Positions 2-1,060 of a DNA stretch of 1,060 nucleotides are shown piece by piece; the first letter of the stretch is position 1; each line of letters begins with the position of its first letter. The stretch is taken from NCBI GenBank assembly GCA_000004985.1, contig GG739587.1. One strand, written 5' to 3'. The position numbers and the translations under genes were made by a program. A model generated the notes under the pieces. That model had not been told where the DNA came from. It made no database searches and worked only from the letters and a program-made list of their open reading frames with translations. This stretch comes from Naegleria gruberi. Taxonomy: Eukaryota.

Positions 2-220
2 TATGGTATTTGTTATGAAAAAAAAAGTCAATTAATTTATCTAATTGATACATTTGCAAAGGCAGTTTATGTATTTAGAAAACATGATATGGGTCTAGTA
101 CATAAATGGGAATTGACTCAGTATTTATCTTCCAAAACATTATATGGCATTTCATTGAATCCAAGGAAGGGAGAATTATTTTTACCTGTTTCTGACCATT
201 CAGTTATAATTATGGAGTAA
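2..220 (+). CDS. 3' end (C-terminal 72 aa plus TAA stop) of a protein-coding gene that extends beyond the left window edge; product unknown. Translation: YGICYEKKSQLIYLIDTFAKAVYVFRKHDMGLVHKWELTQYLSSKTLYGISLNPRKGELFLPVSDHSVIIME*
   Basis: Plus-strand frame 2 is open from nt 2 to 217, with TAA at 218-220. The other two plus frames carry about 6-7 stops each over the same span, as expected in sequence this AT-rich. GC is about 28% over 1-220 (61 G/C by my count) and about 8% in the spacer that follows. The amino-acid composition is diverse and not low-complexity, and the codon choices match the downstream GST gene (caa Gln, cca Pro, ggt Gly, tta Leu). An AATAAA hexamer sits 24 nt past the stop. 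It is missing from the ORF track, presumably because it is edge-truncated or under the length cutoff. I recognise no homology by eye. Confidence 0.5.
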   Translation, partial: YGICYEKKSQLIYLIDTFAKAVYVFRKHDMGLVHKWELTQYLSSKTLYGISLNPRKGELFLPVSDHSVIIME

Positions 221-243
221 ACATTGATTTAATATTAGATTGG

Positions 244-249
244 AATAAA
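244..249 (+). terminator. Putative polyadenylation hexamer AATAAA for the plus-strand gene, 24 nt downstream of its TAA
   Basis: The sequence aataaa is at 244-249. The spacing from the stop is plausible, but such hexamers arise by chance in DNA this AT-rich. Confidence 0.3.
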
Positions 250-307
250 TTATTATTATTATTATTATTAAACAATTAACAATTATTTTTTATTATTATT
301 ATTATTA
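249..307. repeat. Two (TTA)n/(TAA)n microsatellite blocks (about 250-270 and about 291-307) forming most of the 89-bp convergent intergenic spacer (221-309)
   Basis: A direct read shows tattattattattattatta and then tattattattattatta, separated by aacaattaacaattattttt. The spacer is about 8% GC (7 G/C in 89 nt by my count). Confidence 0.9.
289..294 (-). terminator. Putative polyadenylation hexamer AATAAA (tttatt on plus) for the minus-strand GST gene, about 16 nt downstream of its TAA
   Basis: Plus strand 289-294 is tttatt, which reads aataaa on the minus strand. Chance occurrence is likely in DNA this AT-rich. Confidence 0.25.
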
Positions 308-309
308 AA

Positions 310-1060
310 TTAATAATATGGTTCTGAATCTCTTTCAGATTTAACAATTTCATTAACAATTTTTCTATTAAAAATTCTTTCTAAATATTTACCTAAAAAT
401 GGTAAATCTCTAGCCTTTAAATTCATATTTCTAGTCCAAGTAGCAACAACAAATAAATAAATATCAATAATACTATATTCATTATTACCTAAAATATATT
501 CTCTACCATCTTTTAATTCATTTTCAAATATTTTAAATTTTTCAAACATTCTTTCTTCTGTTTCCTTTTTAAGTAATTCTTCTTGTTCAATAGATTTAAC
601 ATAACGATGTGAATAATAATAATGATATGAATCATTTTGTAATGAATTACAAATTAAAGACATCCATTGATGAAATTTTGCTCTTTTTTGTAAATTATTT
701 CTATTTGGTTCTAATTTTCCATTTATAAATAATTCACTTAAAAAGTAACAAATAGCTAATGTTTCATATATTACTATAATAGTAGGTTCATTATTATTAT
801 CATTTATATTATTATTATTATTATTAATATATTCAATTACTAAAGTAGGTACAATTCCTTGTGGATTTAATTTTAAATATTTTTCAGATTTTAAATCCTT
901 GACATCTCTTGATAAATTAATAATTTCAACTTGATGAATATTTTGAGTATTTGTATTATTTAATAATTCACCTAAAATAATACGTGGTATCATACCAGCT
1001 GTTGATGGTATACTATATATAGTAAATTTTAATGGTTGATTAATATCAATGGAAGAGTGG
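310..1060 (-). CDS. Glutathione S-transferase, bacterial beta-class-like (GstA-type), 5'-partial. The TAA stop is at 310-312 and the coding frame continues past the right edge. The ORF-track Met at 991-993 is internal.
   Basis: All GST landmarks are present in order. beta1 plus active-site loop: PLKFTIYSIPSTAGMIPRIILGEL (encoded 994-1035 and downstream), compared with E. coli GstA [22 protein letters not shown]. VDL..NPxGxVP motif: IINLSRDVKDLKSEKYLKLNPQGIVPTL (NPQGIVP = 847-867). ES-AI GSH-binding helix: IYETLAICYFL. C-terminal domain: RAKFHQWMSLICNSL, ELKDGREYILGNNEYSIIDIYLFVVATWTRNMNL and KYLERIFNRKIVNEIV, compared with GstA [49 protein letters not shown] and AFMQRMAERPEVQDAL. Upstream of the Met at 993 the frame reads HSSIDINQPLKFTIYSIPSTAG with no stop before the window edge. 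Confidence 0.9.
   Translation of the reverse strand, partial: HSSIDINQPLKFTIYSIPSTAGMIPRIILGELLNNTNTQNIHQVEIINLSRDVKDLKSEKYLKLNPQGIVPTLVIEYINNNNNNINDNNNEPTIIVIYETLAICYFLSELFINGKLEPNRNNLQKRAKFHQWMSLICNSLQNDSYHYYYSHRYVKSIEQEELLKKETEERMFEKFKIFENELKDGREYILGNNEYSIIDIYLFVVATWTRNMNLKARDLPFLGKYLERIFNRKIVNEIVKSERDSEPYY
790..825 (-). repeat. In-frame coding (AAT)n trinucleotide repeat encoding a poly-Asn tract (NNNNNNINDNNN, residues 57-68 of the track protein) inside the GST N-terminal domain
   Basis: Plus strand 790-825 is almost pure (att)n, interrupted once each by atc (Asp) and tat (Ile). The minus-strand reading is aat codons. It lies between the predicted beta3 (TLVIEY) and beta4 (TIIVIYE) strands. 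Confidence 0.9.

Follow-up and report, generated by a model that had tools for sequence, protein, structure and literature searches.

The window analysed here, which is the whole of a 1060-bp scaffold of the Naegleria gruberi NEG-M assembly, is confirmed to carry a real, partial gene for a two-domain glutathione transferase (GST). The best explanation, and in our judgment a probable one, is that this is a nuclear N. gruberi GST of a bacterial family, donated to the ancestor of N. gruberi and Naegleria lovaniensis. In appearance this is an old transfer from bacterium to protist, of a fairly ordinary kind. For placement of the gene in the N. gruberi nucleus we depend on the deposit and on N. lovaniensis having the sister sequence, since there is a single 1-kb scaffold and no second record of the protein was found.

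A partial GST gene at the scaffold end

The window holds the 3' parts of two convergent genes, each of which runs off one end of the scaffold:

2..220, plus strand: 3' end of the convergent neighbouring open reading frame (ORF), 72 codons and a stop by translation; runs off the other scaffold end
221..309, no strand: intergenic spacer between the two convergent genes, 7.9% GC, with (ATT)n at 249-307 and AATAAA at 244-249 (plus strand) and 289-294 (minus strand)
310..1059, minus strand: partial coding sequence (CDS) of a cytosolic-type glutathione transferase, 249 codons and a TAA stop at 310-312; the 5' end is lost at the scaffold end
991..993, minus strand: ATG (Met23) used as the start of the RefSeq/GenBank model, whose record spans query residues 23-249

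The frame of the GST gene opens at position 1059, the window edge, and is free of stops for 249 codons. With the base composition of the window about 10% of random codons would be stops, and a run of 249 open codons would arise by chance with a probability of about 4e-12. From Met23 onwards the window protein is 100% identical to XP_002667948.1 (EFC35204.1, D2W6U8_NAEGR), the annotated N. gruberi product of 227 aa. We judge Met23 to be internal because residues 10-22 align with the N-termini of the N. lovaniensis and bacterial homologues (alignment A1) and are confidently modelled, with strand beta1 at residues 10-16 and a mean pLDDT of 95 for residues 11-20 in the AF2 model. The public model XP_002667948.1 is N-terminally truncated and is without strand beta1 and the catalytic loop. 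A literature search for these accessions found no paper that mentions them.

The 72-aa neighbouring product has no homologue in a search of 5.8 billion proteins; its sole Pfam match, Arylesterase, is sub-threshold (E 0.027), and a PDB search gave nothing under E 1.5. Rfam and tRNA scans of the window were empty. A reading made earlier from the sequence alone (the sequence-only reading) had described the 3' flank of the GST gene as (TTA)n/AATAAA. The repeat at 249-307, (ATT)n on the plus strand, reads (AAT)n on the gene strand, and the window has four copies of AATAAA where chance alone would give 7.9. The copy at 289-294 lies 16-21 nt beyond the stop on the GST strand; as a poly(A) signal the motif was rejected and is given no weight.

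Fold and glutathione-binding site

The Pfam models GST_C (1.2e-9), GST_C_2 (2.7e-6) and GST_N_2 (1.7e-5) all match past their cut-offs, as does GST_C_3. An AF2 model built from a 52-sequence alignment (mean pLDDT 92.8, pTM 0.90) presents a thioredoxin-like arrangement of four beta strands with intervening helices (beta1-alpha1-beta2 ... beta3-beta4-alpha3), followed by five helices. The protein has the thioredoxin-like N domain and the all-helical C domain by which the soluble GST superfamily is recognised. Foldseek comparison with the PDB returned 679 matches at E <= 0.001, the best 50 of which are all glutathione transferases or GST-family proteins; the top matches are bacterial GSTs with target-normalised TM-scores of 0.82-0.86, a comparison that confirms a GST and by structure alone does not separate the classes. 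The domains and sites are as follows:

730..1032, minus strand: N-terminal thioredoxin-like (glutathione-binding) domain, residues 10-110 (DSSP on the AF2 model)
minus strand, elements of the N domain by residue: beta1 10-16, alpha1 23-35, beta2 41-48, beta3 72-77, beta4 94-98, alpha3 100-110 (DSSP, AF2)
994..1008, minus strand: beta1-alpha1 loop 'PSTAG', residues 18-22 (MAFFT alignment with GstA, 4g9h, 1pmt and 3uap)
937..960, minus strand: Asn/Thr-rich 8-residue insertion 'NNTNTQNI' in the alpha1-beta2 loop, residues 34-41 (alignment A1)
847..852, minus strand: Val70-Pro71, conserved 'VP'; P71 is invariant in alignments A1, A2 and A3
790..825, minus strand: poly-Asn tract NNNNNNINDNNN, residues 79-90 (TRF (ATT)n at 790-830; alignment A1)
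760..765, minus strand: Glu99-Thr100 at the start of alpha3; E99 is invariant in A1 and A3
334..693, minus strand: C-terminal all-helical domain, residues 123-242 (AF2 helices; Pfam GST_C at residues 148-232)
minus strand, helices of the C domain by residue: 123-148, 157-182, 197-207, 220-230, 233-242 (AF2)
460-474, minus strand: 'SIIDI' N-capping box, S196-I-I-D199

Val70-Pro71, ahead of beta3, occupies what we take to be the cis-Pro position of the GST G-site. Glu99-Thr100 is presumably the Glu-Ser/Thr pair by which GSTs bind the gamma-glutamyl moiety of glutathione, and S196-I-I-D199 presumably the S/T-x-x-D N-capping box of alpha6. These G-site hallmarks are all present; D199, L202 and W208 are invariant in the family alignment, and P71, E99 and D199 are invariant across 52 members. 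At the beta-class 'PGACS' site the window protein has Ala21 in the Cys10 position and Gly22 in the Ser11 position. The 'NNTNTQNI' insertion is found neither in N. lovaniensis nor in the bacterial homologues (alignment A1). The in-frame poly-Asn tract that the sequence-only reading had pointed out is there, within an insertion of 16-17 residues in the beta3-beta4 hairpin, and this region is the least confident part of the model (block 81-90, pLDDT 72).

We infer that the enzyme most likely carries out glutathione-dependent conjugation or reduction of electrophiles or disulfides, and that the thiol would be activated by a hydroxyl (Ser19 or Thr20) or by backbone amides, not by a Cys.

A beta-like family beside the beta class

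GstA (NF007831) is the top NCBIfam model for the window protein, with 51.9 bits over residues 54-242 against positions 36-198 of the 201 in the model. It is also the top model for the homologues from N. lovaniensis (97.9 bits), Noviherbaspirillum (108.2) and Azospirillum (115.4), with no other model above 48 bits, and all four proteins score below its cut-off of 198 bits. The co-linear similarity to GstA over both domains that had been claimed by eye is real though weak. The C domain does hold the 'DIYLFVVATW...YLERIF' segment then flagged, and the claimed C-terminal match, SIIDIYLFVVATWTRNMNLKARDLPFLGKYLERI, aligns as it had been given.

Among solved structures the top matches of the single sequence are bacterial beta-class GSTs: 4g9h (5.4e-9), 2dsa and 1pmt (residues 15-238). 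A profile of the family scores 7.5e-43 to 3e-29 against beta-class structures and lower against all others (rho 8.5e-27, Ure2p about 2e-26, delta about 1e-21, phi and zeta about 1e-18 to 1e-19), in agreement with the claim that the nearest characterised class is the proteobacterial beta class and not a eukaryotic one. The label 'bacterial beta-class (GstA-like)' holds for its first half, a bacterial-type GST. Its second half fails on the bit score, on the residue in the Cys10 position and on the tree. That position is an Ala in the whole family, invariantly, and a Cys in four of four beta-class references. The family, Naegleria included, forms a clade without GstA, 4g9h, 1pmt and 3uap in 200 of 200 neighbour-joining (NJ) bootstraps, and the same separation is obtained in 200 of 200 after Dayhoff-6 recoding (NJ, four beta references). 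As for the second-sphere G-site residues of GstA, His106/Lys107, HMMER sets the His of the 4g9h 'HKG' opposite His146 with a 5-residue gap, in an alpha4 alignment that is ambiguous, and the His146 column is variable in the family (alignment A1). Judged by sequence, 'beta-like' is the best term for the family, as a sister group to the canonical beta class.

A relative in the chromosome of Naegleria lovaniensis

An exhaustive HMMER search of 1.84 billion cluster representatives gave one non-self match below 1e-30. This is XP_044554451.1 of N. lovaniensis (C9374_011282, called P0002 in our searches; 1.2e-48), which is 43-47% identical to the window protein over its full length. A word-indexed search had returned the window protein only. 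The representatives are clustered at 50%, so that close relatives of P0002 are hidden. The P0002 gene is intronless and lies on an 813-kb contig among eukaryote-type genes, for example one for a zf-UBR protein; its GC of 33.6% (28.8% at third codon positions, GC3) is like that of its neighbours. By this contig context and host-like GC, the N. lovaniensis gene is integrated in the host chromosome and is not bacterial contamination. No synteny with the window was found, and at the N. lovaniensis locus nothing corresponds to the window's downstream neighbour.

The host had been taken for an amoebozoan, perhaps a dictyostelid, with retention of an ancient family in Amoebozoa as the alternative. 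This has to be corrected: the scaffold is from N. gruberi, Naegleria is a heterolobosean and not an amoebozoan, the sole named eukaryotic relative is N. lovaniensis, and no dictyostelid or amoebozoan relative turned up in any search.

Nesting in a proteobacterial family

Among the best 150 of 377 matches, the named relatives other than N. lovaniensis are all Proteobacteria (Noviherbaspirillum, Undibacterium, Pseudoalteromonas, Azospirillum, Roseomonas, Kiloniella, Roseibium and others), with no further eukaryote. At least 588 bacterial species genomes have the family, whose range takes in Alpha-, Beta- and Gammaproteobacteria as well as myxobacteria. Its bacterial members are 26-36% identical to the window protein and 38-47% to that of N. 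lovaniensis; the latter is about as close to Azospirillum proteins (44-47%) as to the window protein. Two further neighbours are without eukaryotic traits: the contig of one is dense in genes and looks bacterial, and the other is alone on its contig. Metagenomes scanned with the window protein and P0002 as queries yielded no close relatives, only two bacterial-like loci at 38-39% identity. The family is a large, uncharacterised one of proteobacterial GSTs.

Trees were built by NJ with simple distances from 69 taxa and 211 columns, and in them the branch of the window protein is long and compositionally biased. The two Naegleria proteins pair in 300 of 300 and 200 of 200 bootstraps, and in 198 of 200 after Dayhoff-6 recoding. 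The bacterial members are monophyletic without Naegleria in at most 1 of 200 NJ bootstraps, and the Naegleria node lies at least three nodes deep in 197 of 200. The proposed nesting in a proteobacterial clade is what these NJ trees give, although the nested sequences are not the amoebozoan ones that had been expected.

An Azospirillum-like donor was suggested by the top identities and by an N-terminal signature. It was not retained: NJ support is weak, with an Azospirillum-plus-myxobacterial sister group of Naegleria in 97 of 300 bootstraps, and is gone with Dayhoff-6 recoding or taxon removal. As to the donor lineage, there is a weak hint of Azospirillum and no more. The same similarities bear on a different history, in which the gene was inherited vertically or from the alphaproteobacterial endosymbiont that became the mitochondrion and was lost nearly everywhere but in Heterolobosea. 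The top identities of the N. lovaniensis protein are indeed in Alphaproteobacteria (Azospirillum and Roseomonas, which have the N-terminal signature 'TLY..PSTA.M.PHILLRE' in common), and the sampling of eukaryotes is partial, being confined to the best 150 of 377 matches and to 50% clusters. We nevertheless hold this history to be very unlikely: very many independent losses would be required, the named matches in that sample include no other eukaryote, the family is wide in three proteobacterial classes and in myxobacteria with Naegleria several nodes deep, and the alphaproteobacterial link is weak and is lost on recoding.

Divergence of the N. gruberi copy

Of 59 family positions conserved at 85% or more, the window protein keeps 36, with P71, E99, D199 and W208 among them; together with the long open frame and the confident model, this points to a real gene under selection. 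His26, invariant in 51 bacterial and metagenomic sequences (alignment A3), is Arg, and Gly22 stands where most family members have Ser22; on these substitutions a loss of function is possible. The N. gruberi copy might on this account be a decaying relic under relaxed constraint, drifting to AT equilibrium and no longer a working enzyme, as would be in keeping with the other 23 conserved positions being changed, the Asn-rich insertions, the long branch relative to N. lovaniensis, and a GC3 of 5%, near the composition of the spacer. We consider a relic quite unlikely. The 249 codons are open despite the roughly 10% chance of a stop at each, the G-site and fold-determining residues are retained, and the insertions are confined to surface loops of a confidently modelled protein.

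Composition and the standing of the scaffold

GC is 21.0% for the scaffold and 20.5% for the GST CDS, close to the 22% or so in the sequence-only reading, and falls over the three codon positions from 31.6 through 24.8 to 5.2%. The codon bias given there for caa, cca, ggt and tta is likewise borne out (CAA 8 of 8, CCA 7 of 9, GGT 5 of 7, TTA 24 of 25 Leu codons), and AAT is used in 30 of 30 cases. Phe, Tyr, Met, Ile, Asn and Lys make up 43% of the residues. Azospirillum, Burkholderiales and other proteobacterial genera named here are of mid to high GC. A GC3 of 5%, the poly-Asn tract and a spacer of 8% GC make the window incompatible with the proteobacterial genomes that bear the family, which for the window speaks indirectly against bacterial contamination. 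The composition fits a long residence in the host ('amelioration'), given the GC3 of 5% here and 29% in N. lovaniensis, where the gene also has the composition of its neighbours. The earlier proposal of an old bacterial transfer with subsequent amelioration stands in these respects, with Naegleria nested in the family and composition host-like; the amoebozoan recipient was wrong.

In the history that we favour, a bacterium would have passed the gene to the ancestor of N. gruberi and N. lovaniensis, where it would have acquired host composition; extreme AT pressure in N. gruberi would then have brought GC3 to 5%, the share of the six AT-favoured residues to 43% and Asn-rich insertions into two surface loops.

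The N. gruberi genome is reported to have a GC of 35% (PMC9928731), and the scaffold lies 14 points under it. The GC3 of 5% compares with 29-43% at the N. lovaniensis locus. Such values raise the question of whether the scaffold is ordinary N. gruberi nuclear DNA at all. One possibility is a Sanger read or contig that strayed into the assembly from another, extremely AT-rich eukaryote, or from an unusual AT-rich compartment; the GST would then still be of bacterial type, with its host mis-assigned. The composition, spacer included, is far from that of the N. lovaniensis locus; the scaffold is read-sized and exists in one record; the protein is only about 45% identical to that of N. lovaniensis; and the adjoining ORF, which is not common to the two loci, has no homologue in the 5.8-billion-protein search. 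Yet the sole close relative in 1.84 billion representatives is from Naegleria, paired with it in 198-200 of 200 bootstraps, and the two proteins have in common an N-terminal extension of about 10 residues that is absent in bacterial homologues. The annotated proteomes searched contain no identical or near-identical protein; one would be expected there if the DNA stemmed from an AT-rich organism already sequenced, for instance a dictyostelid. Nothing close was found in JGI metagenomes or viral contigs. A stray origin is in our view rather unlikely. It is likewise unlikely, and slightly more so, that the scaffold samples an unrecognised, extremely AT-rich genome or compartment of, or closely associated with, a Naegleria-like organism; if it did, the bacterial-type GST would mark an undescribed lineage or compartment.

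The direction of the bias recalls giant viruses, since mimivirids are reported to have codon preferences like those of Naegleria but of larger magnitude (PMC11702301), and the window is extreme in that direction. Descent from AT-rich, mimivirus-like viruses that infect Naegleria was rejected as extremely improbable: IMG/VR matches are only 25-33% identical, no closer than ordinary bacterial members, a fold search of the BFVD structure library brought up nothing GST-like at E <= 0.001, and the N. lovaniensis homologue sits in a normal chromosomal context. A bacterial gene acquired before the two Naegleria species separated remains the reading that we prefer.

Significance

Neither a bacterial gene in Naegleria nor a bacterial-type GST in a protist is a new kind of finding. 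What is gained here is a corrected host, in Heterolobosea instead of Amoebozoa, and a public gene model shown to be N-terminally truncated. A large, uncharacterised proteobacterial GST family without the beta-class Cys is defined beside the beta class. With members in two Naegleria species, the gene is a candidate marker for dating the transfer within Heterolobosea, for which use the scaffold's composition, 14 GC points below the genome, calls for caution.

Comparison with known glutathione transferases

The N. lovaniensis protein has its domain order and the N-terminal extension in common with the window protein, as well as the motifs 'SMIP', 'EKFKIF', 'KARDLP.LG.YL.RIF' and the C-terminal 'EPY[YF]'. 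It differs in being without the poly-Asn tract and 'NNTNTQNI', in keeping His26 and Ser22, in its gene neighbours, and in composition (GC/GC3 33.6%/28.8% against 20.5%/5.2% for the window CDS).

The family in which the Naegleria pair nests is annotated in bacteria as 'glutathione S-transferase family protein' (Azospirillum spp., Roseomonas, Noviherbaspirillum saxi, Undibacterium, Chitinibacteraceae, Pseudoalteromonas). Its bacterial members have, like the window protein, the invariant Ala in the Cys10 position and a C-terminal '...EG..(A/E)P(F/Y)(Y/F)'. They are shorter, at 206-220 residues, without the N-terminal extension or the loop insertions, and mostly read 'PGNAS...APH' where the window protein reads 'PSTAG...IPR'.

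Of the characterised classes, the canonical beta class (GstA 1a0f, Yersinia 4g9h, Proteus mirabilis GSTB1-1 1pmt, BphK 2dsa) scores best, with the single sequence as well as with the profile. It is co-linear with the window protein over both domains and shares the 'D.YLF..L.W' helix and the segment that follows; it differs in having Cys10 in place of Ala and is about 20% identical (18-21% in Foldseek alignments). Eukaryotic GSTs (rho 3qav, delta 1jlv, phi, zeta and Ure2p-like) have the same cytosolic fold, with clearly lower profile scores.

A GST gene open at the scaffold end

The window, with 21.0% GC over its 1060 bases, holds two convergent reading frames and the following features:

1059 (window edge, frame start) to the TAA stop at 310-312, minus strand: GST open reading frame of 249 codons, open at the window edge
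991-993, minus strand: start codon of the public model XP_002667948.1 / EFC35204.1, an internal Met at residue 23 of the open frame
790-825, minus strand: poly-Asn tract, by translation
2-220, plus strand: last 72 codons of the convergent neighbour, by translation
89 bases between the convergent genes: spacer with (ATT)n and 7.9% GC, by repeat and composition analysis

At this base composition a stop is expected about once every ten random codons, which puts the probability of 249 codons staying open by chance at about 4e-12. Matches of the translation to Pfam GST_C (1.2e-9), GST_C_2, GST_C_3 and GST_N_2, each above cut-off, identify it as a two-domain GST. For the neighbour there is no detectable homologue among 5.8 billion proteins; its match to Pfam Arylesterase is sub-threshold (E 0.027), and its GC3 of 17.8% is above that of the GST gene. 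Rfam and tRNA scans of the window gave no match.

From Met23 onward the window protein is identical to XP_002667948.1 / EFC35204.1 / D2W6U8, annotated as 'glutathione S-transferase [Naegleria gruberi strain NEG-M]', and the window spans one whole small scaffold of that assembly. Naegleria is a heterolobosean (Discoba), and the dictyostelid or amoebozoan host assumed in the sequence-only reading is thus set aside. As the public model begins at an internal methionine, it is devoid of strand β1 and the catalytic β1-α1 loop (991-1059, minus strand). Residues 10-22 (numbered from the start of the open frame) align to the N-terminus of every homologue, and the model confidently assigns them to strand β1 and the catalytic loop; alignment and model thus place the real start codon just outside the scaffold end.

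Predicted structure and active site

The AlphaFold2 model, built on an alignment of 52 sequences (mean pLDDT 92.8, pTM 0.90), presents four β strands with intervening helices in thioredoxin-like order, followed by five helices. Foldseek against the PDB retrieves GSTs, bacterial ones first (4iq1, 4gf0, 2x64 and 3uap; target-normalised TM 0.82-0.86), a comparison in which the GST classes are not separable by structure alone. The protein retains the hallmarks of the G-site and fold, namely Val-Pro71, Glu99-Thr100 and the S-x-x-D199 capping box, together with 36 of the 59 positions that are strongly conserved in the family. Its two insertions rich in Asn lie in surface loops: one (residues 34-41) between α1 and β2, the other (16-17 residues, including the Asn run 79-90) in the β3-β4 hairpin.

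The protein would be soluble and probably dimeric, a transferase or thiol oxidoreductase that depends on glutathione. As the catalytic loop is without cysteine, Ser19 or Thr20, or else backbone amides, probably activate the thiol. In the window protein arginine replaces His26, a residue common to all 51 bacterial and metagenomic sequences of the family alignment, and glycine stands where most members have Ser22; these replacements make an altered or reduced activity possible.

Relatives and composition

Searched exhaustively with HMMER, 1.84 billion cluster representatives yielded 377 matches at E <= 0.001. The sole non-self match below 1e-30 is the N. lovaniensis protein XP_044554451.1 (1.2e-48, 47% identity); all other organism-named relatives are proteobacterial. 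A word-indexed protein search did not return this 45%-identical N. lovaniensis homologue, probably limited by the few 5-mers shared with a low-complexity, AT-driven query. The N. lovaniensis gene is intronless and lies on an 813-kb contig, surrounded by eukaryote-type genes that it resembles in GC (33.6%) and GC3 (28.8%). Its convergent downstream neighbour (L001:10742-12811, minus strand) encodes 666 aa with a 2OG-Fe(II) oxygenase domain and methyltransferase domains; the window contains no counterpart of it, and local gene order thus differs between the two Naegleria loci.

In a scan of one genome per species, at least 588 bacterial species carry the family, among them Azospirillum, Roseomonas, many Burkholderiales, Chitinibacteraceae, Stellaceae and myxobacterial MAGs. 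Neither JGI metagenomes nor the viral contigs of IMG/VR yielded a close relative, and a viral structure library gave no GST-like match. Eight IMG/VR contigs (L084-L091) do carry a member with about 33% identity to the N. lovaniensis protein; the family gene thus sometimes lies within regions that IMG/VR calls viral.

The host-like composition, codon bias and in-frame poly-Asn tract described from the sequence hold: GC3 of the coding sequence is 5.2%, and TTA, AAT, CAA, CCA and GGT prevail in their codon families. The (TTA)n/AATAAA 3' flank is to be corrected in two details: the repeat is (AAT)n on the gene's strand, and AATAAA is not enriched (4 copies in the window vs 7.9 expected). The scaffold has 21% GC compared with 35% reported for the N. 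gruberi genome (PMC9928731). In GC, in GC3 (5%) and in spacer GC (8%) it also differs widely from the N. lovaniensis locus (genes 34-40% GC, GC3 29-43%, intergenic DNA 34% GC), and the window protein is recorded only once among protein records. Contamination from a sequenced AT-rich organism is nevertheless argued against by the sister relation to N. lovaniensis and by the absence of the protein from every other annotated proteome.

Phylogeny and possible donor

Neighbour-joining (NJ) trees were computed from a MAFFT alignment (69 sequences, 211 columns) of the two Naegleria proteins, bacterial members with and without organism names, and four canonical beta-class sequences recovered or verified via PDB search. 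Pairing of the two Naegleria proteins has bootstrap support of 300/300 and 200/200, and of 198/200 with Dayhoff-6 recoding. Their node lies at least three nodes deep in 197/200, and a bacterial-only clade excluding them appears in at most 1/200. The Naegleria genes are thus nested within the bacterial family, in distance-based trees that contain a single long branch of biased composition. This nesting is as would be expected for a transfer that took place before N. gruberi and N. lovaniensis diverged, and a bacterial origin followed by long amelioration is well supported. Genes of bacterial origin are familiar in Naegleria; in the literature searched, neither these accessions nor a prior description of this transfer came up.

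As to the donor, Azospirillum and Roseomonas give the highest identity and have the N-terminal signature 'TLY..PSTA.M.PHILLRE' in common with Naegleria. The Azospirillum-group form (L002-L018) reads 'TLY(G/A)(M/I)PSTA(S/A)MAPHILLRE', compared with 'ITLYAIKTAASMIPHILLRE' in N. lovaniensis and 'FTIYSIPSTAGMIPRIILGE' in the window (994-1032). The N. lovaniensis protein is as close to Azospirillum proteins (44-47% identity) as to the window protein. A sister relation to the Azospirillum type is weakly supported (97/300 NJ bootstraps) and collapses with recoding or taxon removal. The shared signature is thus a hint of a donor in this lineage that the NJ trees do not bear out robustly.

A Cys-less family adjoining the beta class

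The beta class is adjoined by a large proteobacterial GST family that appears to be uncharacterised (L002-L081, e.g. L004:3001-3639). Its members are annotated solely as 'glutathione S-transferase family protein' in the genomes of the carrier species, and its loop 'P(G/S)(N/T)A(S/N)' and C-terminal '(A/E)P(F/Y)(Y/F)' motifs are conserved. Against solved structures, the family profile matches beta-class enzymes best (4g9h, BphK, 3uap, GstA, 1pmt, 1f2e and others; 7.5e-43 to 3e-29), followed by rho (8.5e-27), Ure2p-like (about 2e-26), delta (about 1e-21), and phi and zeta (about 1e-18 to 1e-19).

The co-linear similarity to GstA noted by eye is confirmed: among PDB sequence matches beta-class structures rank first, and of the NCBIfam models GstA scores best with the window protein, the N. 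lovaniensis protein and two bacterial members; the C-terminal segment aligns as claimed. The interpretation drawn from it is partly supported: membership in the beta class or GstA is not supported. All four proteins score 52-115 bits, below the 198-bit cut-off of the GstA model, and the family splits from the four canonical references in 200/200 NJ bootstraps. Where canonical beta-class GSTs have Cys10, the family, including the Naegleria proteins, has an invariant alanine. By score and by this position, the window protein is best described as belonging to a Cys-less family adjoining the beta class, neither GstA nor canonical beta.
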